Part shown: piece by piece, positions 1,219 to 54,959 of the stretch
Layout of the letters: the number at the start of each line of letters is the position of its first letter
Numbering within the stretch: position 1 is the stretch's first letter
Assembly: GCA_016699305.1 (NCBI GenBank)
Contig: CP064970.1
Location: forward strand, 389,647 to 453,646
DNA: 64,000 nucleotides
Direction of reading: 5' to 3'
Origin: Alphaproteobacteria bacterium
GTDB taxonomy: Bacteria; Pseudomonadota; Alphaproteobacteria; GCA-016699305
Notes under the pieces: model-generated
Database searches by the model: none
Seen by the model: only the letters and a program-made list of their open reading frames with translations
Told to the model about the DNA's origin: nothing
Program-made: the position numbers and the translations under genes

Positions 1219-1452
1219 GAAATTTAGCGTAATAATATACAATCCAAGACCTTCCGCATAAGGCTTGCCGAAACGACACGGAGCTTCCATACTGCCGGAA
1301 CTGTGTGGATGCAAAAGAGTCTTGGTTAACAGGGCTAAGCTTGCATACAGTGTCGGCACCTGGTCGGGATACGTCTTTTGATTCGCTTTCAAGACGCAAC
1401 TGACCGAGGCGGTGACTTTTGTAACTCATGGCAATAACGACGGTTCTGGCCA

Positions 1453-4400
1453 ATGTCCGACAAAGACACTCAACACATCCACAAACCCGCTCAGATGGGC
1501 GACTGGTTGACGACCGCTGTATGGATAACCGGCCTGGCCGCTTTCCTTGGCTTGGCCGTTGTCACGGCGCAGGTCAAGTCAGAGTACGACCGCTTGGCAG
1601 TGGCGCCGGTGGCCAGTGCCACCGCAGCGGCCTTGCCGCCTGAGATGGAAGAGATCCGCCAGTCTTTGGGATATAGCGGTTTTTCGGGCGCTATGACTCG
1701 CTTCTTACGCGATCGCAAGCCCGAACAACAAATGGAAATGCGTCAGTCTCTGGACAAGGCTTTGGCCTCATTGGATCGTCTGCGCGCCAAGGCCGCCGGT
1801 CAAGAAGCCCGCGCGATGGAAGCCGAATTACGCGCTTTGATGGGGCCGTTTCAACAGATCGAGGAAACCGCCGCACGCGCCGTGACCAATAGCGACGTGA
1901 CGTTTTCGGCCGGTACCGCCCTGCCCGCTTTGATGACCTTGCCGTTGATCGAAAACCGTTTGACACAGGCGCAAAACCTGATGGCCGGAGGTCAACAAAA
2001 GTCGACCGAAATCACGTGGCGTCAGGATCTTAGCCGCCTGAACCAACGATTATTCTTTCTGGCCGCTATCGGTTTGGGATTGGGACTCGTCCTGGCCGGA
2101 TCATTGGCCTGGGCGGTACGACGTCAGTTCCTGTCGCCCTTGAATTCCTTAGCCCGCAGCCTGATCGGTCTTGAAAAAGGCCAATTGGATCGCCCGGTAT
2201 GGGGGACCGAGGGCGAGGGCGAAATGGGAGAATTGGCGCGCCTTTTGGAGCGTCTGCGCCAACGCTTTGCTTCGGTTCCCGATGTCACCCTTCCCGAGGA
2301 GAAGGACCAAGAAGGCCTCCCCCTGCAGCTACGGTTTGAAGGCAAGGCGGCGGCGGTGTTTTCATCGTTGACCGACGAAATGTCGCGCGCCGTCGATTCC
2401 TTACAAGGTACCGAGCGCAAATTGATCGAAATGGTCGAACAAGAACGCAGCGGCTTCCAAGACGCCTCGCGTCATTGGCAAACTCAAAACGACTCCTTGT
2501 TGGTCCTGGCCGACCATATGCGCAATCAGATGGCGCAAACCGCCGACCGTCTCACCATGACTGAGATGAGCTTGCGCGAGATGCGCGACACAATCGTGGC
2601 GGATTTGGCAGGCTTGTCTGTCAGCCTGCGCGACCAGACGCAGCAGATGGGCATCACCGCCCAGCGTAGCGGCGAGGATTTGCGCGACTTCCTGGGCCGC
2701 GTAGAATTGGCCACCACCCAATCCTTGAACGATCTGCAAATATCCCTGCGCGAAGCCGTCGATGGGGCCAGCCGCTCCGCGCGTCAAGAAGGCGAAGGAT
2801 TCCGTTCGACCGTGCAGGCTTTGGAGTCGGATATTTCCCAGACACTGCATCAATTGACCGACCGTTTGGAGGTCGAGGCCGCCTTGCGCATGCGTACCTT
2901 AAACGAGGAAAACGATTCGCTTCGCGCCGCCATGGCCGATCTGCGCGATACCTCGCTGGGCCAGGTGAAGGAATTGGCCGGTGACCTTTCTAATGAAATG
3001 CGCCAGATGCTTACAGACACACGCCGCGAAGGTGAAATCTCGCGTGAGGCGTTGCAGTCATGGCAGCAGGCTTTGGCAGAGCGCACTCAGGGACTGGCCG
3101 AGCAGCTTAGCTACCGTATGCAGGAATTGCAGGACAACGCCACGACCCACTTTCAGGCTCTGCGCGATTCCGCCACACAGCATATGGATGTGACCCAATC
3201 CGGCCTGACCGAGCAGGCGCGCCGTTTGGAGATGACCGCCCAGACGGGCCAGGAGATACTGGACAGAGGATTAAACGATCTACGCCAGTCTGTTACGGGC
3301 ATTATCGGTCAAATTGCAAACGAGATGACCGGCGAATCCGCGCGTATGTGGCAGCGTCTGGAACAAGAGGCCATCTCGTCACGCGACGCTTCGGAAGGCT
3401 GGCGTCAGTCTGTCAGCGGAGAGATCCAAGCGACGCAGCGCATGATGATCGACGCCTTACGCCAGACCCAGGATAACTTCGTCAACGAGATCAACACGTC
3501 CTGGTCCGGCGCACAGCGCGGCCAAGTCGATCTGCGCGAGGCCTTGGCCGAGATCCACGGCGTGGTATCGACTGGCCTTGTCGAGGTCAAATCGGTTTTG
3601 GGTCAGCATATGGAAGGCGTACAGTCTTTGGCCGAGCGCGAAAGCAGCGTGACCGCCGAATCCTTGCGCGGTTGGCGCGACGCCTTGGATGTCGGCATGT
3701 CGGCTCTGCGCGACAATGTGGTCGCGCATATGCAAACGCTGGGCGATTTGGCCGGACAAGGGCAAGACCGCGTGTCGCATGCCGTTGGCGAACTGCAAGA
3801 CGCATTCAACGACGCTTGGCAGCGTTTTGAGACTCAGCTGAACGAACGCACAGGAACGGTGACGGAAATCGTCCGCCTAACGGCCAACGAGACGCAAGAC
3901 GCCCTGCGCGGCTTGCTGAACATCAATCGCAATCTGGGTCGCGCCAGCGAAGACGCGCAGTCCCTGGTGGCCAAATACGACGCCGGATTGCAGCGCAGCG
4001 TGGGCCGCATGGAAGCCGTGGTGCTGACCATGGAGAACGAGAGCGGCTCGGCTCGCCAAGCGGCCATATCGGCGCATCAGCAGGCGGAAACCACCTTGGC
4101 CTTACTGCAACAGGCGCAAGAAGCCATGCGCGATCTGTTGACGGGCCTGGCACGGCGCGTCAGCGAAACCGTGAATGTGACCCAGGACCTACGCCAAGCC
4201 ACCAATCGCTTGACCGAACAGGGCCAACGCACCGCCGAAGAATTCTCGATGACACTGGCCGATATGCGCCAGCAGACCGGCGAAATCCAAGGTCGCTTGG
4301 TCGAGGCCCAGAGCCTGGTCGGCACGGCCAGCAGTTCGCTTCGTTCGGCCGAAGGCGAATTCGTCGCCGCCACCGCCGAGATGCGTTCGCGCCGCGACGT

Positions 4401-4959
4401 GTTGGACAATCTGGTTCTGGAATTGCGCCAATCGCTGCAAGGTGCCTTCGACTCAAGCCTGCAAAAGGAAGAAGACTGGCGTTTGATGATGAACCGCGTA
4501 TCGGGCAATCTGGAATCCACCATCCGCGAAGTGATGAGCGAGATCGGGCAGCAGATCGCGCAGACGCAGCATCAATTCGGCATGCTGACCCAGCAGGTGG
4601 AACGTTTGTCGGATCAGACAGACTCGGCTTCGCAGCACACGATGCGCGTGATTACCTCTCTGTCGCAACAGGGCCAGCAGGCCATCTCCACCACGGGCGA
4701 GATCGAACGCCGCCTGGAGATGATGACCAGCCGTCTGGACAACGCCGCCAAGGACAACACGCAAAGCATCTCGCGCATGAGCGAGGATGTGGTGATGCGC
4801 GTCGCGACGCTGCAATCGTCGCTCAACGGCACGTTGGAGCGTCTGGCCATCCTCGGCCAATTGACCTCCACATTGGGCGCCGTGGCCGGTCAGCTGGGGC
4901 AGTTGGTGCCCGTTTTGTCCGCTCTGCCCTTAGTGGACAACGAAGCCCGCCGCGCGTAA
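1453..4959 (+). CDS. membrane-anchored HAMP-domain protein with ~900-aa coiled-coil cytoplasmic region
   Basis: Two hydrophobic segments (WLTTAVWITGLAAFLGLAVV; LFFLAAIGLGLGLVLAGSLAWAV) followed by HAMP-like RRQFLSPLNSLARSLIGLEKGQLD...GEMGELARLL, then long heptad-like Q/E/R/L-rich sequence; no MCP signalling motif seen. Confidence 0.6.
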   Translation: MSDKDTQHIHKPAQMGDWLTTAVWITGLAAFLGLAVVTAQVKSEYDRLAVAPVASATAAALPPEMEEIRQSLGYSGFSGAMTRFLRDRKPEQQMEMRQSLDKALASLDRLRAKAAGQEARAMEAELRALMGPFQQIEETAARAVTNSDVTFSAGTALPALMTLPLIENRLTQAQNLMAGGQQKSTEITWRQDLSRLNQRLFFLAAIGLGLGLVLAGSLAWAVRRQFLSPLNSLARSLIGLEKGQLDRPVWGTEGEGEMGELARLLERLRQRFASVPDVTLPEEKDQEGLPLQLRFEGKAAAVFSSLTDEMSRAVDSLQGTERKLIEMVEQERSGFQDASRHWQTQNDSLLVLADHMRNQMAQTADRLTMTEMSLREMRDTIVADLAGLSVSLRDQTQQMGITAQRSGEDLRDFLGRVELATTQSLNDLQISLREAVDGASRSARQEGEGFRSTVQALESDISQTLHQLTDRLEVEAALRMRTLNEENDSLRAAMADLRDTSLGQVKELAGDLSNEMRQMLTDTRREGEISREALQSWQQALAERTQGLAEQLSYRMQELQDNATTHFQALRDSATQHMDVTQSGLTEQARRLEMTAQTGQEILDRGLNDLRQSVTGIIGQIANEMTGESARMWQRLEQEAISSRDASEGWRQSVSGEIQATQRMMIDALRQTQDNFVNEINTSWSGAQRGQVDLREALAEIHGVVSTGLVEVKSVLGQHMEGVQSLAERESSVTAESLRGWRDALDVGMSALRDNVVAHMQTLGDLAGQGQDRVSHAVGELQDAFNDAWQRFETQLNERTGTVTEIVRLTANETQDALRGLLNINRNLGRASEDAQSLVAKYDAGLQRSVGRMEAVVLTMENESGSARQAAISAHQQAETTLALLQQAQEAMRDLLTGLARRVSETVNVTQDLRQATNRLTEQGQRTAEEFSMTLADMRQQTGEIQGRLVEAQSLVGTASSSLRSAEGEFVAATAEMRSRRDVLDNLVLELRQSLQGAFDSSLQKEEDWRLMMNRVSGNLESTIREVMSEIGQQIAQTQHQFGMLTQQVERLSDQTDSASQHTMRVITSLSQQGQQAISTTGEIERRLEMMTSRLDNAAKDNTQSISRMSEDVVMRVATLQSSLNGTLERLAILGQLTSTLGAVAGQLGQLVPVLSALPLVDNEARRA

Positions 4960-5131: not shown

Positions 5132-5980
5132 ATGGTCGAACACAACAAACGAATTACCGAGATATCCTACAATAAGGACGGCTTTCGATCGAACCTGGCC
5201 GCCAAAAAAGGCGTCTATTACCTCGAGTTCGATCATGGGTTGGTCGATCGCGCCAAGATCACCGGTCATCCCGAGAGCGACCCCGCGCCGTTCTTCCCCA
5301 GGGCCTTTTTGCGTCTGGACCAGGGGTATGATGCCCCCGAGAAGGCGCAAGAAGTGGCCTCACTCGTGGAAAATCTGTTCCACGAGCATAGAAAGGATGT
5401 CTTTCCTAACGAAAAGGCTTCCTTGCGGCGCGGCGGCATGTTCCACGATGCCGAACAAGCGCGGCTGACCATAAAATCCCTTGCTGACTTCGCGCAGGCC
5501 GAGGGGCCACAGGCGATGGTAACGGCGATCGCCACCGGCCTTGGAATCCCTGTTCAGGAAATGTCACCCACAGACGCCAAACCCGCTTTGGACCCCGGAC
5601 AGGAATGGGGCGGCAGAACATGGGCAAAAATGGAATCCGTGATTAAACTCGGCGACTCGCATTTCATGTGTGTATCCGCGCCCTATGGCGCGCCTGAGGT
5701 GCATTTTGTAAACAAACTGGGCGACGCGAAAGAATCGTACGCTTTCGCTTCTGCCATGGAGCCCGAGGAACTAAAAAAAGGAATCTCAAGTTTCGTCAAT
5801 CATGCCTGCGATGGCGTCAAGCTGGGACGCAACGCCACGGCCCTAAGAGAAACGCTACTACAAGAGGGATTGTCACAACACAGGCTGTGCCGCCCACAAA
5901 CAGAAGCCCCGCAGCGCCATGCCGAAAAGCCCCGCATGACACATGCGGCCTATGGACAGGTGCAGCTTAGGTGTGGATGA
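5132..5980 (+). CDS. hypothetical protein
   Basis: 282-aa ORF; overlapping alternative-frame ORF 4980..5468 judged less likely; no motif recognised. Confidence 0.35.
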   Translation: MVEHNKRITEISYNKDGFRSNLAAKKGVYYLEFDHGLVDRAKITGHPESDPAPFFPRAFLRLDQGYDAPEKAQEVASLVENLFHEHRKDVFPNEKASLRRGGMFHDAEQARLTIKSLADFAQAEGPQAMVTAIATGLGIPVQEMSPTDAKPALDPGQEWGGRTWAKMESVIKLGDSHFMCVSAPYGAPEVHFVNKLGDAKESYAFASAMEPEELKKGISSFVNHACDGVKLGRNATALRETLLQEGLSQHRLCRPQTEAPQRHAEKPRMTHAAYGQVQLRCG

Positions 5981-11547: not shown

Positions 11548-13110
11548 TCACGCACCCTGCAAAAGGCGACGCAGCAGATCCACATCCTGGCGCAGGTCCT
11601 TATCCGTCTGGCACAGCTCCTCCACCTTACGCACGGCGTGAATGACCGTGGTGTGGTCGCGACCACCGAAACGACGCCCGATATCCGGCAGAGAGCGCGA
11701 GGTCAGCTGCTTGGCCAGATACATCGCCACCTGACGCGGACGAGCCACCGCGCGCTCACGGCGCGTGGAGCACATCTCGGCCAGGCGCATATTGTAATGC
11801 TCGGCCACGCGACGCTGGATATCCTCGACCGTCAAGGTGCGGTCATGGGTGCGCAGAATGTCGTGCAGCACCTCGCCCACCATATCGAGGGAGATGGTCT
11901 GCCCCACGAGGTCGCCATGCGCCGTCAAACGGTTCAACGCGCCCTCTAATTCACGCACATTCGACGTGATGCGATGCGCCAGGAACTCCAACACATTGGC
12001 GGGAACGCCGCGCCGCGACTGCTCGGCCTTTGACTGCAAGATACCCAAGCGCAGCTCATAGCTGGTGGGATGAATATCCGCGCACAGCCCCCAGCCTAGA
12101 CGCGAACGCAAGCGTTCCTCGATTTGGTCCAGTTCTCGCGGAGATTTATCTGCGGAAACGACGATCTGTCGGTTCTCATCCACCAAGGCGTTAAAAGTAT
12201 GAAAGAACTCTTCCTGTGTGGAATCTTTGCCGCTGATGAACTGCACATCATCGATCATCAGCACATCGACCGAGCGAAACTCCTCTTTGAACGCCATCGT
12301 GTCTTTAAAGCGCAACGCCCGTACGAACTGATACATAAATTTTTCAGCCGACATATAGATCACGCGCCGACCGTTGTTCTGGCCACGAATATGCCAGGCA
12401 ATGGCATGCATCAAATGCGTCTTGCCCAGCCCCACGCCTCCATACAGAAACAGGGGGTTAAACGACACAGAGGATGTTTCGGCCACGCGCCGCGCGGCGG
12501 CATGGGCCAATTCATTGGGCTTACCCACAACGAATTGGTCAAAGGTAAAGCGGGCATCCAGCGGCGCGCATAAATCATCGCGCCAGTCTTTCATGGCCGA
12601 GCTTACCGCCTTGGCAGGCAGACCGTTCACAGGCAACGCCGTCCCGATCAGCGGCATGGCCGTGCGGTCCGAATTTGCGGGAAGGTCGCCGATGGCACTT
12701 GTCTGGGTCTGACCAACCACAACGGGCTGTCCCGCAGATGCAACCTCGACCGATGGCAAAACGCCAAAGCGGATGTCTTCCAGCTCGTATCCCGCCTCGC
12801 GCCAAGTGGCCGAGATCATGGCACCGTAATGCGTCTCCACCCAATCGCGCATGAATCGCGTGGGCAGGCTGATGACCACCGTGCCGTCTTGGCCGCAGCG
12901 CTCACAGCGCATGCTTTCTAGCCAGCGGCGGAAATTTTCAGTGCCGACTTTTTTGCGCAACAAGGCGCGCACACTTAGCCACAACGCTTCGGTCGAAGGG
13001 GCGGAATCGGAATCGGCATTTGAAAGACTATGCGCAGCCGAGCGGCTGACCGCGGATGGGTGAATGTTGTCGGTGTGAATGGCCCGTGCGCCCATGCCCC
13101 CTACCCCCAT
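11548..13110 (-). CDS. dnaA: chromosomal replication initiator protein DnaA
   Basis: AAA+ Walker A GVGLGKTHLMHAIA, box VII/sensor region and C-terminal DNA-binding helix-turn-helix (RQVAMYLAKQLTSRSLPDIGRRFGGRDHTTVIHA). Confidence 0.95.
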   Translation of the reverse strand: MGVGGMGARAIHTDNIHPSAVSRSAAHSLSNADSDSAPSTEALWLSVRALLRKKVGTENFRRWLESMRCERCGQDGTVVISLPTRFMRDWVETHYGAMISATWREAGYELEDIRFGVLPSVEVASAGQPVVVGQTQTSAIGDLPANSDRTAMPLIGTALPVNGLPAKAVSSAMKDWRDDLCAPLDARFTFDQFVVGKPNELAHAAARRVAETSSVSFNPLFLYGGVGLGKTHLMHAIAWHIRGQNNGRRVIYMSAEKFMYQFVRALRFKDTMAFKEEFRSVDVLMIDDVQFISGKDSTQEEFFHTFNALVDENRQIVVSADKSPRELDQIEERLRSRLGWGLCADIHPTSYELRLGILQSKAEQSRRGVPANVLEFLAHRITSNVRELEGALNRLTAHGDLVGQTISLDMVGEVLHDILRTHDRTLTVEDIQRRVAEHYNMRLAEMCSTRRERAVARPRQVAMYLAKQLTSRSLPDIGRRFGGRDHTTVIHAVRKVEELCQTDKDLRQDVDLLRRLLQGA

Positions 13111-13384: not shown

Positions 13385-13564
13385 AGTATTTCAGGAGCGT
13401 TTCTTGTTTTTTCACTTGCGCTACTATAGTTATAAATTCTGTCGCAAGCGGACTTTATTTATTCAATACTCTTAATGCATCATTAATATTTACCTATCAA
13501 TGGGATTTAGACGCAATCATGCAACGAAGCTATAAAACGATGGCCGCAAGTTGCGGCGCATCGC

Positions 13565-17940: not shown

Positions 17941-18816
17941 ATGGCTAATCTCAAGGACTTACGCAATCGCATCGCCAGCGTGCGCGCGACGTGCAAGATC
18001 ACCTCGGCCATGAAAATGGTCGCGGCCAGCAAATTGCGACGCGCTCAAACGCAGGCCGAGAACGCGCGGCCTTATGCCGAGTCCTTGCAGGATATGCTGG
18101 CCTCGGTCTCTCAAGGCATCCCGGCGCATGACGATTCTTTGCCGGCCTGGGCGCGTGCCAGCGGCAATAAAAGTCCGGCACTGGTGGTTCTGACGTCGGA
18201 TCGCGGCCTGTGCGGCGGCTTCAACGCCTCGGTCGTGCGCGATGTGCGGCACAGGGTTGATGAGTTGGAGAAACAGGGAACGCCGCCCATCCTGATCTGC
18301 ATCGGGCGGCGTGGGCGCGACATGCTCAAACGGACCCACAGCAAATATATCGTCCACAGCATGGATTTTGGCCGCACGCCCTCTTATGCCGTGGCGCAGG
18401 ATTTGGCGGAAACCCTGGTTAAGCTGTTCACCCAAAGCAAACTGGACAGCTGCGATCTGATGTTCAACGCCTTCAAAAACGCCTTGCAGCAGGAGCTGCG
18501 CATGCGACGTATCATGCCCGCGCCCATGGACCCGCCCGAAGAGGCCGCCGCCAAGCCGACGGTCTGGCGTATCTATGAGCCGGGGCGAAACGAGATATTG
18601 GCCGGCCTGTTGCCCTTGAACATGAAGACGCAAATTTATCTGGCGATGGTCGAAAGCATGGCAGGCGAACATGCCGCGCGCATGACCGCTATGGACAGCG
18701 CCACACGCAATGCCAGCGAGATGATTGATCGCTTAAACCTGCGTTACAACCGGCTGCGCCAGGCGGCCATCACCACGGAGATGATCGAGATCGTCTCCGG
18801 CTCTGAGGCGATGTAG
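17941..18816 (+). CDS. atpG: F0F1 ATP synthase subunit gamma
   Basis: MANLKDLRNRIASVRATCKITSAMKMVAASKLRRAQ... and C-terminal ITTEMIEIVSGSEA. Confidence 0.95.
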   Translation: MANLKDLRNRIASVRATCKITSAMKMVAASKLRRAQTQAENARPYAESLQDMLASVSQGIPAHDDSLPAWARASGNKSPALVVLTSDRGLCGGFNASVVRDVRHRVDELEKQGTPPILICIGRRGRDMLKRTHSKYIVHSMDFGRTPSYAVAQDLAETLVKLFTQSKLDSCDLMFNAFKNALQQELRMRRIMPAPMDPPEEAAAKPTVWRIYEPGRNEILAGLLPLNMKTQIYLAMVESMAGEHAARMTAMDSATRNASEMIDRLNLRYNRLRQAAITTEMIEIVSGSEAM

Positions 18817-18819
18817 AGC

Positions 18820-21092
<2,273 letters not shown>

Positions 21093-21163: not shown

Positions 21164-24100
21164 TTACTTCCAGTTCGCCGCAATCACCGTGGCCAAAGAG
21201 TCCTGATAATGTTGCGGCAGGGTGTTCTCATTCGCCGCAGGCGGCGCGAATGCGGCCATGGCATTGACCAAATTCTCGACCTGGTTCGCCAGCAAAGCCT
21301 TGCCGTCCGAAGTCTTGAATTGCTCAATCTGGGCCACCGCTCCGCTGCCATACCAGCCACTGATGGTCATGCAATCTTCCGTTCCGATGATGCTGACCTC
21401 GAGATCGCTGTTCAGCTTTCTGAACCAGATTTGGTCGCTGGCGATACCTGAACCAAACGACATCATGTCGCTATTGCCGGCAGTGCTGTCATATTCCTGG
21501 ATGGAGTCAACATACGAGCCACGAGCCATCACATAGGTGTCGTTGCCCTGCCCGCCAATCAGCCAATCACGCCCTGTGCCACCATCCAGCGTGTCATTGC
21601 CCGCATCGCCGTTGAGTGTATCATTGCCATCCTGGCCTTGCAGCAGATCGTCTCCATAGCCGCCGTTTAGAATATCGGCACCCACGCCGCCCGCCAGTCT
21701 GTCGTTGCCATCTTCGCCATTGATTTGATCATCGCCGCCATCGCCGCCCAGCGAGTCATGACCCGAGCGGCCATAGACGTAATCATTGCCGTCGCCGCCA
21801 TTGATGGTGTCCGCCGTGGCATAGCCAGTTAGAACGTTATCTTCCGTTGTTCCTGCCAAAACCTTGGCCTTCACCGCATCGACTCTCCAGACGGTTCCAT
21901 CGGCAAATTTGATATTCTCGATCACACTGTTCGTTGCGCCGTCCTGAGTGAAATAGCTCGACACATTCAGCGTATCATCTGTGCCTACGAGGCTGATCAC
22001 CAGGTTGCCATTGTCGTTCCTTAGCATCGTCTGTGCAGCGGAGATTCCCGCACCCAACAGAACCGTATCGGCATTCACGCCCACGGCGTCAACGTCACCG
22101 TTGTTGATCGTGTCTTGCCCGCTTCCAAAGCCAAACAGATAAGTATCGGCACCGTTGCCCCCACTCATCTGATCATCACCTGTACCACCGTCGAGCGTAT
22201 CGGCTCCGTCTCCCCCGTAGAGATTATCGCGACCTTCCATACCGCGCAGCACATCATTCCCCGCGCCGCCATCCAGTGTATCGTCGCCAAAACCCGCACC
22301 GCCGGTCAGCGTATCGTTACCGCCATCACCGTATAAACAGTCATTGCCGTAACCGCCGTCGATGATGTCATTGCCGCCATGCGCATAGATCGTATCATCG
22401 CCAGAGGCCCCGGCCAGGGAATCAGCCGTCTCAAATCCTATCAGAGTGTCACTGGAGTTGGTGGCGACCGTCACCTTGGCCTTGATCGCCGCCACATTCC
22501 ACACCGTGCCATCGGCGAATCTGACGTTCTCGACGGCATGAGGCGTCGCTCCATCCTGACTGAAATAGTTTTGAACCGTCAGTTTGTCATTGGTGCCGAT
22601 GATCGATAAGGCCAAATTATCCCACTCGCGAGAGGCCACCACATCCGCGACCGCCACGCCGGCAGAAAACTGGATGGTATCGGCTTTTACGCCCAACGCA
22701 TCCACGTCGTAATTATTGATCGAATCCTGTCCGCTGCCACGCCCGAACAGATAGACATCCGCGCCATCGCCTCCCGACAACACATCATTGCCCAAGCCAC
22801 CATTAAGAGTGTCATTGCCGCCATAGCCGTATAGCGAGTCGTCACCCACCCCACCCAGCATGCTTTCCGACGCCGCCGTGCCCGCCTTGTACATGGCAGC
22901 AGGAGCGGCGCTCAATCTGCTCTTGACCGCGGCATAGTCCCATACCGTACCGTTGGCAAAGCCAATAAGCTCCACCGCGTTGGCTGTCGTGCCGTCCTGC
23001 GAGAAATAGCTTTGAACCGTCAGCCTGTCATTGGTGCCGATGATTGACAGAACCAGATCATCGCCCAAACGGGAAGCAGCCACATCCGCCGGCACGATTC
23101 CTGCCTGAAAAATGATGGCGTCCCTGGACTGGCCGAGAGCATCATTGTCATTATTGCTGATGGTATCCTGACCGCTGCCGCGCCCGAACATATAGCTATC
23201 AGCCCCATCACCCCCGCCAAGCGTGTCATTGCCTAGACCACCATAGATGCGGTCATTGCCCGATTCCCCATAGAGGGTATCGTCACCCTCATCGCCGTAG
23301 ATCGCATCATCATCGGCGCCGCCATATATATAATCATTGCCCGCGCCGCCCAATAACCCGTCATAGCCAGCGCCGCCACTGATGTTGTCAGTGCCGTCAC
23401 TGCCGCTGATCGTGTCAGATCCATCATAGCCATTGATCTGGTCATCGCCCGCGCCGCCATTGATGTTGTCCGCGCTGGCATAGCCGTACAGCGTGTCTTT
23501 TTCATTCGTGCCCAGCAAGGTCTTGGCCTTCATTGTGGCCACGTCCCATACCGTGCCGTTAGCAAAGCCAATAAGCTCCACCGCGTTGGCTGTCGTGCCG
23601 TCCTGCGAGAAATAGCTTTGAACCGTCAATCTGTCATTGGTGCCGATGATCGACAGAACCAAACTATCGCCCAGACGGGAAACAGCCACATCCGCCGGCA
23701 CGATTCCTGCCTGAAAAATGATGGCGTCCCTGGACTGGCCGAGAGCATCATTGTCATTATTGCTGATGGTATCCTGACCGCTGCCGCGCCCGAACATATA
23801 GCTATCAGCCCCATCACCCCCGCTAAGAGTGTCATTGCCTAGACCGCCATACAGACGATCATTGCCCGATTCCCCATAGAGGGTATCGTTACCCCCGTCG
23901 CCGTAGATCGCATCATCACCAGCACCACCATTGAGGCTGTCATTGCCCGCGCCGCCGAGCATCCCGTCATGGCCATCCTCACCATAGAGGACATCGGCCC
24001 CATCATCGCCATACAGCGAATCGCTGCCGCCATTGCCTTGGATTGTGTCCCCACCCGCGCCGCCACGAATAGTCTCTGCACTGACAGAGCCATACAGCGA

Positions 24101-46038: not shown

Positions 46039-46138
46039 GTGGGAGAGCGGCGGCGGACGTAACGCCCGCCAACCCGGTCAGGTCCGGAAGGAAGCAGCCG
46101 TAACGGGATCGGTGCGGGTCGTCGTTCGTTCTCCCACC
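46039..46138 (+). ncRNA. ffs: signal recognition particle RNA (4.5S RNA)
   Basis: Contains the conserved SRP domain IV core GGTCAGGTCCGGAAGGAAGCAGCC; 5' GTGGGAGAG pairs with 3' CTCTCCCAC; directly upstream of dnaX. Confidence 0.75.
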
Positions 46139-46171
46139 TTATTTTGCTTGGTTCTTCAATGGAGCGCGGAT

Positions 46172-48037
46172 GTGTCGGACGAGGCGACGTTAAGCTTAAG
46201 CCTGGGACTGGATGACGCCGCGACCGAATCGGCCGGGGCGTATCGAGTTTTGGCGCGTAAATACCGCCCGTCGAGTTTTGAAGACATCATCGGTCAGGAC
46301 GTTTTGGTCCGCACCTTATCGAACGCGCTGGAAAGCGGACGTTTGGCGCAAGCCTGGATGCTGACCGGCGTGCGCGGCGTGGGTAAAACCACCACGGCGC
46401 GAATCATCGCCAAGGCTTTGAATTGCGTTCAGGGACCGACGCCGCATCCGTGCGGCGTGTGCGAAACCTGCATCGCCATCGCGGCGGATCGGCATGTCGA
46501 TGTGATCGAGATGGACGCCGCATCGAATACCGGCGTGGAAAACGTGAGGACGGTGATCGAAGGCGCGCGTTACGCGCCCGTCTCGGCGCGTTTTAAGATC
46601 TATATCATCGACGAAGTCCATATGCTCTCGCGCCAGGCGTTCAACGCCTTGCTGAAGACGCTGGAAGAACCGCCGCCGCATGTGAAATTCGTCTTTGCGA
46701 CCACCGAGATTCGCAAAGTTCCCGTGACTGTCCTGTCGCGCTGCCAGCGATTTGATCTGCGCCGCATCACCACCGCCGAGCTTGCCGATCTGCTGACGCG
46801 CATCGCCACGAAAGAGGGCATGACGTTAGAGGAAGATGCCGCCGCCCTATTGGCGCGCGCGGGCGATGGCTCGGCCCGCGACGCCATCAGCCTGTTGGAT
46901 CAGTCGATCGTGCGCGCGGAAAGCGGCAGCGTGACGGCCGATGCCGTACGCAACATGCTGGGGATCAACGCGCGTGACGGGGCAGCCCTATTGCTGGATT
47001 GCCTACTCACAGCCAAACCCGCCGAGGCATTGGAACAAGCCGCCGATCTGCGCCAGTCGGGTGCCGATGCGGTGACCGTGCTTCAGGATTTGGCCGGACT
47101 GGTGCATCTGTTGACCCGTGCGCGGCTGGCTCCCCAACAGGCCTTGTCAGACCCACTTCTGCCGCAGGCCGAGCGTGAATTGGCGCAGCGTTTAGCTCCT
47201 GGCCTGTCATTGGCCGAACTGACACGCGCCTGGCAGATTTTGCTCAAGGGTCTGGGCGAAGTGCAATCCGCGCCCGATTCATGGGCGGCGGCCGAGATGG
47301 TCTTGGTGCGCCTGGGTTATGCCGCCAGTCTGCCTACGCCGGCCGAGTTGATCCGGGAATTGCGCCGCGAGCCGCCAAGCCTTGGCGGCCCTACCCTGCC
47401 CGCCTCGACTGGCGGTGGACGTGTTGTGGCTGGCACCTCAATCTCTGGAAACGAGGGAGGCGCCATCGCGCTGTCCCTGCCCAGCCATCGGGCACAGGGC
47501 ACGCAAACCGTCGCCACGCGCGGCAATCTGGCTTTGGCCATCACGCCTTCCCAATCCGCCAGCCCCGAAATCGCCTTGGCCCCCTGCCCTGTTACCTTTG
47601 AAGATTTGGTGGTGTTGTTCGAGCAGCGGCGGGAACCCGTTCTACGCGCCCAGTTGTACAAACACGCGCATAAAGTCCATATCGAGCCGGGCCGCTTGGA
47701 ATTGCGCCTAGAGGCCGATGCCGCGCCCGATCTATCCAGCCGCGTGGCGCGTTGCCTGACTCAGTGGACGGGGCAGCGTTGGGTTGTCAGCCTGGCCAGT
47801 TCAGGCGGCGACCCGACATTGGCTGAACAAGAAGAAGCGCAAACTCAACGACTGCGCGAACGCGCCCTGGCCACGCCGATTGTGCAGGAAGTGATGGCGC
47901 AATTCCCCGGCGCTACATTGGCCGCCGTACGTCCAGCACCTACGCCCACTGCGCCATCATTCGAAGAATCCGGCCCGCTCACAAACGATGGCATGGTCGA
48001 GACCGATATGGATTTAGGCTCTTTCCTCTTCGATTGA
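46172..48037 (+). CDS. dnaX: DNA polymerase III subunit tau/gamma
   Basis: YRVLARKYRPSSFEDIIGQ, Walker A GVRGVGKTTTARI, zinc module CGVCETC; start set at in-frame GTG 46172 because the ORF-track ATG 46112 lies inside the SRP RNA. Confidence 0.88.
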   Translation: MSDEATLSLSLGLDDAATESAGAYRVLARKYRPSSFEDIIGQDVLVRTLSNALESGRLAQAWMLTGVRGVGKTTTARIIAKALNCVQGPTPHPCGVCETCIAIAADRHVDVIEMDAASNTGVENVRTVIEGARYAPVSARFKIYIIDEVHMLSRQAFNALLKTLEEPPPHVKFVFATTEIRKVPVTVLSRCQRFDLRRITTAELADLLTRIATKEGMTLEEDAAALLARAGDGSARDAISLLDQSIVRAESGSVTADAVRNMLGINARDGAALLLDCLLTAKPAEALEQAADLRQSGADAVTVLQDLAGLVHLLTRARLAPQQALSDPLLPQAERELAQRLAPGLSLAELTRAWQILLKGLGEVQSAPDSWAAAEMVLVRLGYAASLPTPAELIRELRREPPSLGGPTLPASTGGGRVVAGTSISGNEGGAIALSLPSHRAQGTQTVATRGNLALAITPSQSASPEIALAPCPVTFEDLVVLFEQRREPVLRAQLYKHAHKVHIEPGRLELRLEADAAPDLSSRVARCLTQWTGQRWVVSLASSGGDPTLAEQEEAQTQRLRERALATPIVQEVMAQFPGATLAAVRPAPTPTAPSFEESGPLTNDGMVETDMDLGSFLFD

Positions 48038-51263: not shown

Positions 51264-52634
51264 CTAACGGCCCTGCGGCGCGTTTAGCCCCAGTATCTGG
51301 GCCAGTTTCTGATAGCCCAAGGCCAAATCCGACCGCTCACTCTTGTCCTGACGCAGAAAATCCTCCAATGCGGCGCTGTACAGAATGGCTTCATCCACTG
51401 CCGCATCACTGCCCTTGCGATAAGCGCCCAGACGAATAACTTCGGCCATCGAGTCGTAATCGGCCAACAGCCGCCGCGCGCGGGTGACCAATTCGTTCTC
51501 ATCATCCGCATTGCAGCCAGGCATGGTACGCGAAACGCTACGCAAGACATTGACCGCCGGATAACGGCCCCGCTCGGCAATCGCACGATCAAGAACAATA
51601 TGGCCGTCCAGAATGCCGCGCACGGCATCGGCAATCGGCTCGTTGTGATCGTCGCCATCCACCAGGACCGTGAACAATCCCGTGATGGTGCCGCTTCCCG
51701 CCGCGCCGGGACCTGCACGCTCCAACAAGCGCGGCAATTCGGCAAAGGCCGTCGGCGGATAGCCCTTGGTCGTGGGGGGTTCCCCCGCCGATAGGCCAAT
51801 CTCGCGCTGCGACATGGCAAAGCGCGTGACGCTGTCGATCAGACACAACACGTTCTGGCCTTGGTCGCGGAAATACTCGGCCACCGCCAAGGTGACATAG
51901 GCCGCTTGACGGCGCAGCAATGACGCCTCGTCCGAGGTTGCCACCACCACCACGCTGCGGGCCAGACCTTCGGGGCCCAGATCATCATGCAAAAAGTCTT
52001 GGACCTCGCGTCCGCGCTCGCCCACCAAGCCAATCACGCATACATCAGCCGATGTATAACGGGCGATCATCGACATCAGCACCGACTTACCCACGCCCGA
52101 TCCCGCAAAAATGCCCATACGCTGGCCTAGGCAACAGGTTAGGAAGGTATTCAAAGAACGAACGCCAAGATCAATCTTCCCGCCCACGCGCTGGCGCGTA
52201 TGGGCAGGCGGCGGGGCGTTACGAATCGGCACGGCGGCAGGGCCGGCGGGTAGCGGCCCCTTGCCATCCAACGGCTCGCCCAAGGCGCTGACCACCCGCC
52301 CCAGCCAAGCCGCAGTCGGACGGATGCATGGTTGGGTCTCTGCCACTTCGGCCCTGCATCCCACGCCGATTCCGTCCATGGCCCCGAAAGGCATCAGCAA
52401 GGCGCGTTCCTCGCGGAAGCCGACAACCTCACACAGGACCTTTCTTCCACCCCGCGCGGCGACATAACATCTTCCGCCTATGGAAAGATGATGTTCCACA
52501 CCCGAGACTTCAATCAAAAGCCCCATGACCGAGGATACACGGCCAAAGATACGGTGGGACGGCACAGAATCTATATCGAATCTGAACCGCGACAATATTG
52601 CAGAGTCAACGTGTTGTGCGTGCTTGTTCGTCAT
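51264..52634 (-). CDS. fliI: flagellum-specific ATP synthase
   Basis: Walker [11 protein letters not shown], Walker B, F1-beta-like fold. Confidence 0.92.
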
Positions 52635-52765
52635 GCACCAGTCTTGGCAGAAGCTGGTTTACAGAATATTAACGAATGTGGTGTTTGGTAAGCGTTGAGT
52701 TAAGAGTCGTTCACAATTGCGTGGGTCCAATTCTGGAGCCACGCTGCCACCAATAGGGGGACAGC

Positions 52766-53560
52766 ATGCGCGTCCTGCTCGTCGAAGACGATGCCTCGGT
52801 TTCCAAGACGCTGGAGCTATTGCTTCAAGCCGAAGGATTTGTCGTGGATATCACGGATCTGGGCGAAGACGGCCTGGAGATCGGCAAGATCTATGATTAT
52901 GACATCATCATCTTGGATCTGATGCTGCCGGACATCGACGGCTATGAAGTCTTGCAACGCTTGCGCCAAGCCAATGTGACGACGCCGATCATGATCTTGT
53001 CGGGCTTGTCTGAGTTAGAAAACAAGCTGCGCGGTCTGGGCCGTGGTGCCGATGATTATCTAACCAAGCCTTTTGACCGGCGCGAATTGGTGGCGCGCAT
53101 CCACGCCATTATCCGCCGCAGCAAGGGACACTCGGAAAGCATTATTAAGACCGGTCGCCTGACGGTCAACCTGGACGCGCGTACCGTGGAGATCGAGGGC
53201 CAGCCTCTGCATCTGACCGGCAAAGAATATGGGATCATCGAACTGCTTTCCCTGCGCAAGGGTACGACCCTGACCAAGGAAATGTTCTTAAATCATCTGT
53301 ATGGCGGCATGGACGAGCCGGAATTGAAGATCATCGACGTATTCGTGTGCAAATTGCGCAAGAAACTAGCCCAAGCCACCGGAGGCGATAACTATATCGA
53401 GACCGTCTGGGGCCGTGGCTATGTCCTGCGCGATCCCAATAATCCGGGAGGCATCGCGCCGATCGGTGATCTGACGGCAGATTCACAATCGGGCGGCGGA
53501 CTCCCATCGTCATCGTCTCCCACGCGTAAAGCCTCTGCTACACATCAAATCGTCGGCTAA
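52766..53560 (+). CDS. ctrA: cell-cycle response regulator CtrA (OmpR family)
   Basis: MRVLLVEDD...[30 protein letters not shown] receiver domain and winged-helix ([14 protein letters not shown]); ~30-aa Ser/Gly-rich C-terminal extension. Confidence 0.85.
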
Positions 53561-54137: not shown

Positions 54138-54959
54138 TTAGTGGCCAACCCATTCCGCGCCTCCGAAAATTACGTCCTCGCGGTTTACCACGGAACTGAG
54201 CGGCGGCATGTCCAATACTGCACACGCTGACCTCTCTACAATAAGCTCCGGATTCGTTCGTGCCTTATGTTTGGGGGGAAGGGAAATCAGTTCCTTTGCA
54301 CTAAAGGGGGCTGATACAATACGCCGCTGAACATATGCACCTCGCTTGAATAGGGTCGGGTAGTTGTTCCAGTTCACGTCTTTTGCATGAAGCATGTCGT
54401 GCTTCTGCTGGCTACTTTTTCCTATAAGGTCCTTGTGGCTATAATATGCGCTTGCTGCCATGCTCAAGCTGTTTTTAGTGGCGTCAATTTCGCGCCATAG
54501 GAAAACGTTAGCAGCTTCTGTGCGGTTTGGAACATTCCATACCCGCGCGTCGAATGTCGGCATTTTATCGGCGTATATCGGCATTCTCTCAAGAATTAAG
54601 CGATAGAATACCAAAGTTGCCTGCGCAGCAAGCTGACTTGTCATCTTGGCCACGCGCCCATCAAACCAAATTTGACTCTGGAAAGTGTCGCAGTGCCAAG
54701 TCAAGGTTATCTCGTCGCTTTGTGTATAGCCCATACATGCGCCGGTATCGCGAACAAGTGCTAATGTTGTGTCAACCATACATCCTGAAAACGTCGCATC
54801 GAATGGTCGGTCCATACCACGTGTGAAGTTGTGAAATGATCTACCGTCAATCCGTGCCATAGCAGGTAACATTGGCATCAAGCGCCGATTCGCCTCTATC
54901 CCCTCATACAGCTTCATTCTGTTGCCAAGAACGTCTTTTATTGTTCTAAGCTTAAGCAT
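54138..54959 (-). CDS. tRNA(His) guanylyltransferase Thg1-like protein (3'-5' nucleotidyltransferase)
   Basis: ARIDGRSFHNFTRG and GYTQSDEITL match Thg1 family palm-domain motifs; moderately lower GC. Confidence 0.7.
   Translation of the reverse strand: MLKLRTIKDVLGNRMKLYEGIEANRRLMPMLPAMARIDGRSFHNFTRGMDRPFDATFSGCMVDTTLALVRDTGACMGYTQSDEITLTWHCDTFQSQIWFDGRVAKMTSQLAAQATLVFYRLILERMPIYADKMPTFDARVWNVPNRTEAANVFLWREIDATKNSLSMAASAYYSHKDLIGKSSQQKHDMLHAKDVNWNNYPTLFKRGAYVQRRIVSAPFSAKELISLPPKHKARTNPELIVERSACAVLDMPPLSSVVNREDVIFGGAEWVGH

Follow-up and report, generated by a model that had tools for sequence, protein, structure and literature searches.

A 1168-residue alphaproteobacterial membrane protein with a HAMP domain, a long helical cytoplasmic part and no recognisable output domain

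Membrane receptors with a HAMP domain are normally understood through their outputs, which are a kinase, a chemoreceptor hairpin or a cyclase. In a 64,000-nucleotide stretch of the alphaproteobacterial contig CP064970.1 (here called the window), a gene at positions 1453-4959 on the forward strand encodes a protein that is best introduced by comparison with such receptors. Like the methyl-accepting chemotaxis proteins (MCPs; Tsr and Tar of E. coli, McpB of B. subtilis), the window protein has a first transmembrane helix (TM1), a periplasmic sensor of the four-helix-bundle type, a second transmembrane helix (TM2) and a HAMP domain, with homology extending through HAMP. It also shares with them long, non-enzymatic cytoplasmic helices rich in Gln, Ser, Thr and Ala, and a helix length that is conserved at the level of the family. 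Unlike MCPs, it lacks the MCPsignal domain, the conserved hairpin tip and the methylation consensus, and it has instead a PD..FEG block after HAMP, a helical part of about 880 residues and a glycine-zipper end. From the HAMP sensor histidine kinases with helical-bundle sensors (NarQ/NarX, TorS, R. palustris HK9, LytS) it differs by the absence of DHp/HisKA and HATPase_c domains.

The reading that we favour, with a probability of about one half, is that the window protein belongs, as a divergent and unusually long representative, to a so far uncharacterised family of receptor-like proteins in the inner membrane of Alphaproteobacteria, and that it would act as a non-enzymatic, HAMP-coupled transducer. 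Its input half is ordinary. Its output half comes from an apparently undescribed family, in which the window protein is itself an outlier, with a doubled spacing between two conserved blocks and without the usual C-terminal tail.

The gene is real and intact. Its frame of 3,507 nt runs without interruption from an ATG to a stop codon and encodes 1168 residues, with an in-frame stop five codons before the ATG (the six-frame segment begins at 1438). Such a length, together with 100 homologues, speaks against a chance frame. The same 1168-residue product was called independently on a 17.6-kb Logan assembly contig from run SRR11674044. At NCBI the product is listed as QQR69438.1, "hypothetical protein IPI58_01810", on a 2,060,775-bp contig of a metagenome-assembled genome (MAG). 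A fragment from another assembly (P0001) is 96% identical to it.

1453..4959, + strand: complete open reading frame (ORF), 1168 aa (ORF list; two public assemblies; 100 homologues by exhaustive phmmer)

Judged by sequence, the N-terminal third of the protein is a standard bacterial sensing module, homologous to that of chemoreceptors and sensor kinases, with the following parts.

1504..1572, + strand: TM1, aa 18-40 (Kyte-Doolittle peak of 2.03 in a 19-aa window; helical in the AlphaFold2 model)
1573..2049, + strand: periplasmic all-helical sensor of the four-helix-bundle type, aa 41-199 (AlphaFold2 model)
2050..2118, + strand: TM2, aa 200-222, followed by Arg-Arg (Kyte-Doolittle peak of 2.31; aligns with TM2 of NarQ and of MCPs)
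2116..2274, + strand: HAMP domain, aa 222-274, with amphiphilic sequence 1 (AS1) SPLNSLARSLIGLEKGQLD, connector and AS2 MGELARLLERLRQRF (Pfam, hhalign and Af1503 matches)

The topology of a chemoreceptor (TM1, periplasmic region, TM2, HAMP) had already been proposed in an earlier reading of the bare letters of the window, here called the sequence-only reading, and both hydropathy and homology through HAMP bear it out. Hydropathy gives two transmembrane segments separated by about 160 aa, and because of the Arg-Arg pair after TM2 (positive-inside rule) the segment beyond should be cytoplasmic. In an AlphaFold2 model built from an alignment of 13 sequences, aa 61-170 of the periplasmic domain reach values of 83-94 in the predicted local distance difference test (pLDDT); TorS, PcaY, Adeh_2942 and QseE are the structures named alongside this model. 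The domain carries an LGY(G/S)GF motif at aa 72-77 that is conserved across the family. A HAMP four-helix module follows straight after the last transmembrane helix, and the MCP-type input module (sensor, transmembrane helix, HAMP) is present. The family profile matches TM2 and HAMP of six true chemoreceptors with 98.8% probability in hhalign and matches Af1503 HAMP structures with E-values of 9e-6 to 3e-4, while in phmmer aa 201-269 align weakly to the TM2-HAMP segment of NarQ. A Foldseek search with the whole model placed two full-length chemoreceptors at the top (9a65_A and 8c5v_I; E 1.1e-3, probability 0.99), together with the Adeh_2942 sensor.

After HAMP there is no known output domain. 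The remainder consists of the PD..FEG block, long amphipathic helices and an end helix striped with Leu and Gly. Pfam and NCBIfam searches of the window protein detected no MCPsignal, HisKA, HATPase_c, GGDEF or other output domain, and NCBIfam gave no match to it of any kind. The MCPsignal model (PF00015) had no match at E<=1, whereas five true MCPs near the end of the phmmer list, used as a positive control, reached 106-117 bits with it; the sequence-only reading was thus right in stating that an MCP signalling domain or a kinase is absent. Neither MCPsignal nor any other recognised output domain was found in 13 further family members that were scanned. PADLOC reported a weak match of aa 380-860 to the coiled-coil tail of ZorA from the Zorya anti-phage system (E ~1e-7, 29 bits). 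As the similarity is confined to the helical tail, and the window protein has neither a membrane domain of the MotA/ExbB type nor zorB-D neighbours, it is most simply explained by coiled-coil composition, and the ZorA and LeoBC matches were both rejected on this ground.

The cytoplasmic part can be divided into four features.

2275..2382, + strand: family signature block, PDVTL..(12 aa)..PLQLRFEGKAAAVFSSL (family alignment, block hidden Markov model (HMM), AlphaFold2)
2410..3777, + strand: lineage-specific extra helical region, about aa 320-775, boundaries approximate (block spacing, core HMM)
3778..4923, + strand: family-conserved helical core, aa 776-1157 (core HMM)
4798..4923, + strand: glycine-zipper (GQ) block, aa 1116-1157, LAILGQLTSTLGAVAGQLGQLVPVLS (block HMM, 59.7 bits)

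In the PD..FEG block, residues P276, F295, G297 and F303 are invariant in the family alignment. An HMM of HAMP plus this block scores 125.7 bits on the window protein, a value that is partly circular, since the protein is the first row of the model's alignment. The helical part then extends over about aa 298-1150, with some 880 helical residues and a net charge of -40. No proline occurs in the 840 residues from aa 291 to aa 1130, which are rich in Leu, Gln, Ala, Arg, Glu, Ser and Thr. Hydrophobic occupancy in the best register is 0.64, as against 0.53 ± 0.01 in shuffled controls, which marks the region as amphipathic-helical. The sequence-only reading had described it as about 950 aa of continuous coiled coil. 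A long, proline-free, amphipathic helical part is indeed there, but to call it continuous coiled coil goes too far. The dominant hydrophobic period is 3.55-3.65 and not 3.5, and strong heptad occupancy (75% at positions a/d) is patchy, being reached in 16 of 74 windows of 44 aa, mostly within aa 804-880 and 925-970. Between aa 400 and 780 a hendecad-like period of 3.6-3.67 is favoured. In the AlphaFold2 model, whose mean pLDDT is 53.7, the region consists of seven separate helices with lengths of 87-140 residues (298-404, 408-525, 531-651, 657-766, 771-907, 913-1052 and 1063-1149).

A core HMM built from 12 relatives, with the window protein excluded, matches the C-terminal portion of its helical part with 108.1 bits (E 2.5e-35), from position 53 to position 430 of the 432 in the model. 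In its GQ block Leu occupies positions a/d and Gly positions b/f. This block is unlikely to be a third transmembrane helix, as it includes three Gln, two Thr and five Gly within 24 residues, and its Kyte-Doolittle maximum is 1.55.

The family was delineated by an exhaustive HMMER phmmer search of 1.84 billion cluster representatives, which returned 100 proteins at E<1e-3, 43 of them at E<1e-10. Even the closest full-length relatives share just 21-31% identity with the window protein. All relatives that could be traced derive from metagenomes or MAGs labelled uncultured Rhodospirillaceae, Alphaproteobacteria or Micavibrio, and their host genomes are small where the size is known. Annotations call the proteins "hypothetical" or "HAMP domain-containing protein". 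Further searches yielded little: a scan of genome contigs with the family profile found MAGs only, and the same scan with the single window protein found no match. In a word-indexed protein search, the full protein had no match among the best 8,000 candidates, the family profile retrieved one unrelated HAMP-GGDEF protein among the best 8,000, and a profile of HAMP plus the PD/FEG block retrieved short fragments only. A tblastn search against plasmids gave no match. The family appears to be undescribed in the searchable literature and in the source annotations.

Four signatures characterise the family: (i) TM2-HAMP followed by PDxxL..GPxRLKFEG..SLF, the best conserved part; (ii) a proline-poor helical core; (iii) the GQ block ILGQLTGTLGAVAGQLGQLVPAL, with the consensus ILGQLTxTLGAVAGQLGQLVP, Leu at a/d and Gly at b/f; and (iv) a C-terminal tail made up of a Pro-rich linker and conserved terminal helices. 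As a single stretch the GQ block is the most conserved, with invariant G-Q-L-T, L, G, A, L, Q and P. Thirty representatives have both block (i) and block (iii). In 16 of them the two lie 470-472 aa apart (range 379-511), a remarkable constancy at identities of only about 20-38%. Many members have merely a short loop between TM1 and TM2 while keeping HAMP, core and GQ block, so the periplasmic sensor is optional. It appears, then, that the family's core function is cytoplasmic and that the sensor is an optional add-on. Other subfamilies keep block (i) and have different helical C-terminal parts.

The window protein departs from this pattern in two ways. Both the HAMP-PD/FEG block and the GQ block are present, with the family-invariant residues kept, but they lie 883 aa apart, which is the mode of 471 plus 412 and the only roughly doubled spacing among the 30. 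The extra 412 residues do not stem from an internal duplication: self-BLAST of the window protein shows no internal similarity, the family core HMM scores just -2 to 5 bits in the extra region, and hhalign of this region against the core gives a probability of 1-2%, equal to the reversed-sequence control. An insertion of 36 aa at about the same place in the relative P0010 suggests that the site tolerates insertions. The second departure is at the C-terminus. The window protein stops 9 aa after the GQ block, whereas other full-length members carry a tail of 98-355 aa, with the exception of P0027, which is also short-tailed (13 aa after the GQ block). A tail HMM run on all six frames of the window found no remnant, which rules out a frameshifted tail downstream. 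Whatever the tail does in relatives would therefore have been lost in this member.

How such a protein would work can be sketched from its architecture. By analogy with other studied HAMP receptors, it would be a homodimer. The periplasmic bundle may respond to some ligand or to a state of the envelope, and HAMP would then alter the packing of an elongated cytoplasmic helical bundle. As there is no enzyme domain, the output would have to consist in altered contacts with other proteins (or with the membrane). One or several partner proteins may be bound or released by the bundle together with its glycine-zipper end, much as a chemoreceptor controls CheA without catalysis of its own. The Leu/Gly-striped terminal helix, as the most conserved surface, would make the output contacts together with the bundle, and the bundle would become longer or thicker through its 412 additional helical residues.

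Several points weigh against this reading. Its main weakness lies directly after HAMP. There, AlphaFold2 predicts the conserved PD..FEG segment as non-helical, a coil with short strands at a pLDDT below 50, which would break the helix right after AS2. The usual continuous signalling helix would then be absent, making it less likely that HAMP drives the bundle downstream. For this protein alone, moreover, the Pfam HAMP match at aa 222-271 scores 20.6 bits, under the gathering score of 25. The geometry of the bundle is not established, because the AlphaFold2 models are of low confidence and disagree about helix boundaries: a second model of aa 776-1168, made with 33 sequences, has a pLDDT of 62.7 and breaks the helices at other places, and its fold matches are generic elongated bundles, which match one another non-specifically. 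Finally, no gene neighbour is conserved across the family, and literature and annotations name no partner, ligand or phenotype for any member, all traced relatives being from metagenomes or MAGs.

A static scaffold that does no sensing is a possible alternative, if on balance an unlikely one. In such a scaffold, comparable to the cytoskeletal or landmark proteins TipN of Caulobacter and GPR of Agrobacterium, the transmembrane helices would anchor, HAMP would dimerise, and the helices would assemble with each other or recruit clients. GPR (Atu1348) has 2,115 aa; matches to PF01442 (Apolipoprotein) extend over some 75% of its length, and its C-terminus is Pro-rich and of low complexity (PMC8262873). 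Agrobacterium tumefaciens GPR and its Sinorhizobium counterpart RgsE share with the window protein the location in an alphaproteobacterial inner membrane, two N-terminal transmembrane helices, a very long cytoplasmic helical region and similarity of the apolipoprotein type (PMC8262873). TipN of Caulobacter crescentus (CC_1485) is a polarity landmark of the new pole and the division site. Compared by architecture, it resembles the short-loop members of the family (PMC4085708). The complete lack of a periplasmic domain in many relatives, the interruption of the helix right after HAMP and the strict conservation of core length would all fit a structural element. The sequence-only reading had in fact suggested a "scaffold or length-measuring element". 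The spacing of 470-472 aa in 16 of 30 representatives suits a constraint on length, but a simple ruler is broken by the 883 aa of the window protein.

Other evidence speaks against a static scaffold. The periplasmic domain is a well-predicted bundle of the sensor type with conserved residues, and conservation in the family is highest in HAMP and the block that follows, which would not be expected of a mere anchor. The likeness to GPR, compared by description, also has its limits: at 1168 aa the window protein is shorter, it has no Pro-rich end, and PF01442, its one other noteworthy Pfam match besides HAMP, reaches 27.7 bits against a cut-off of 90, in two stretches within aa 392-586. It has HAMP and a 160-aa periplasmic sensor, whereas the word HAMP is absent from the text searched of the GPR paper (PMC8262873), and the text available on TipN mentions neither HAMP nor a periplasmic sensor (PMC4085708). 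None of the 100 phmmer matches comes near the length of GPR; the only one longer than the query is a marginal match of 1,420 aa (P0096, E 7.7e-4). GPR-type proteins are concentrated in Rhizobiales, whereas this family was seen only in MAGs labelled Rhodospirillaceae, Micavibrio or unclassified Alphaproteobacteria.

It is very improbable that the helices behave like those of apolipoproteins, lying on or remodelling membrane or lipid, or that they refold in the manner of ClyA-type toxins. The period of 3.6-3.67 over most of aa 400-780 would suit such a role, as would sub-threshold matches to Apolipoprotein A1/A4/E, to ApoLp-III and to apolipoprotein structures, and a large RTX protein is encoded on the same genome fragment. 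Yet these matches lie below thresholds or come from the model with a mean pLDDT of 53.7, and elongated bundles match each other without specificity. The strongly negative charge of the helical part is poorly suited to binding anionic bacterial membranes, and the topology places that part in the cytoplasm, not outside the cell.

We consider it very improbable that the protein is a highly diverged chemoreceptor whose degenerate or elongated signalling hairpin still docks CheW and CheA. In favour of this, the N-terminal module and the overall shape match full-length chemoreceptors, true MCPs occur at the tail of the phmmer list, and HMMER sets the MCP tip motif opposite aa 430-452 (DGASRSARQEGEGFRSTV). 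This placement is obtained only with gaps, however, and the supposed tip lies within the lineage-specific insert, in a stretch that relatives do not have. In hhalign, the family profile is homologous to MCPs no further than the last helix of HAMP. The methylation consensus [ASTG][ASTG]xx[EQ][EQ]xx[ASTG][ASTG] occurs 1-4 times in six true MCPs, 0-1 times in seven relatives and not once in the window protein, and the MCPsignal results given above point the same way.

A further point for a link to chemotaxis comes from eight MAG loci of one clade (L002, L004, L010, L012, L013, L014, L016 and L023). There, the family gene follows an NAD-kinase-C-like gene; its other neighbours are a ChpT-like gene and a cheA(-receiver)-cheW-cheY-cheB-cheR cluster that shows no MCP gene. 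The adjacency is confined to this clade, however, and may be inherited gene order, because CheA is 72-76% identical across these loci. No che gene is present within the 64-kb window, and the NAD-kinase-C-like, ChpT-like and GvpL/F-like neighbours of relatives are likewise absent from it.

That the gene is a decaying or aberrant copy, a non-functional relic left by insertion of unrelated sequence and loss of the tail, is hardly credible: the spacing is the only one of about double length among the 30 representatives, only one other of these proteins also stops directly behind the GQ block, and nothing related to the insert could be detected, but the frame is unbroken, the insert is still proline-free and amphipathic (occupancy 0.64 vs 0.53 ± 0.01 when shuffled), the conserved blocks have been kept whole, another assembly contains a fragment with 96% identity, and P0027 provides a short-tailed version elsewhere.

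The transducer that we favour can be extended to a bolder model of the whole family, which is doubtful at present. In this model the family would consist of previously unrecognised non-enzymatic HAMP transducers, in which a fixed-length bundle and the glycine-zipper end together take the place of the chemoreceptor signalling hairpin and control a dedicated partner. The partner might be found in the MCP-less cheAWYBR/chpT cluster of the one clade and in a GvpL/F-like neighbour of another, and the window protein would be a natural "double-length" variant that satisfies the length rule in a different way. The GvpL/F-like neighbour is seen in the short-loop clade (L007, L015, L017, L020, L024, L026 and L027), where a gene of 336-365 aa lies directly upstream of the family gene. 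Its copies score 590-676 bits against a common HMM, and one of them has a precomputed Pfam match to GvpL_GvpF. Further relatives have neither the che-cluster nor the GvpL/F-like arrangement.

The family keeps input and HAMP but combines them with a conserved, length-constrained, non-catalytic helical output that is apparently unstudied. If the partner-binding bundle proves correct, it would be a new way of reading out HAMP signals. If instead the static scaffold is correct, the family would add a new membrane-anchored cytoskeletal element to TipN and GPR. At present its practical use is small; no cultured host, partner or phenotype is known.

The genomic surroundings of the window gene are mostly housekeeping genes (hrcA, grpE, an atypical OmpR-like regulator, ahcY, corA, folD and dnaA). 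dnaA itself lies at 11548-13110 (-), 6.6 kb from the giant gene. The sequence-only reading had drawn attention to this proximity, which is correct but finds no support as a clue to function; the neighbourhood differs in every clade of relatives examined. On the same strand the gene is flanked by 142-1218 (358 aa, acidic, rich in Pro and Ser) and 5132-5980 (282 aa), both "hypothetical" at NCBI and both without a match in Pfam, NCBIfam, PADLOC or PDB. A functional link to these orphans is unsupported, since none of the loci of 28 relatives has a homologue of either. The 358-aa gene was also considered as a counterpart of the GvpL/F-like neighbour and is unrelated to it. Divergent from the 358-aa gene, and just before the window, lies a gene for an OmpR-type winged-helix protein (L001 5747-6508, -) whose N-terminal half is receiver-like, yet receives no Response_reg call from Pfam.

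Upstream sequences were searched for promoters and for CtrA-type boxes.

1219..1452, + strand: intergenic region upstream of the giant gene, 234 nt (promoter search)

This region contains neither a sigma-70-like site nor a TTAA-N7-TTAA box, and regulation of the giant gene through a CtrA box is unsupported. Elsewhere in the window, a perfect TTAA-N7-TTAA occurs at 13472-13486, which is some 360 nt ahead of the start of dnaA (13110), and a copy with one mismatch at 52658-52672, upstream of ctrA. The latter gene (52766-53560, +) encodes a CtrA-like response regulator that shares 87.5% identity with the regulator next to the che cluster of L002, and it adjoins a gene for a FliI-type ATPase (51264-52634, -).

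The window holds some further features of interest. The RTX protein (21164-26788, -) has 1874 aa, with 25 RTX nonapeptide and 6 HCBP_related stretches. The atp operon has an unusual break: a gene of the formate/nitrite-transporter family (FNT; 18820-19644, 264 bits in Pfam) is located between the genes for ATP-synthase gamma (17941-18816) and beta (19641-21092) and overlaps the start of atpD by 4 nt. A Thg1-like gene of the tRNA-His guanylyltransferase family is found at 54138-54959 (-; 90 bits). Lastly, a signal recognition particle RNA (46042-46137, 61.5 bits) directly precedes dnaX (46112-48037, +) and overlaps its assigned GTG start by 26 nt; the true start of dnaX is probably further downstream than this mechanically assigned GTG.

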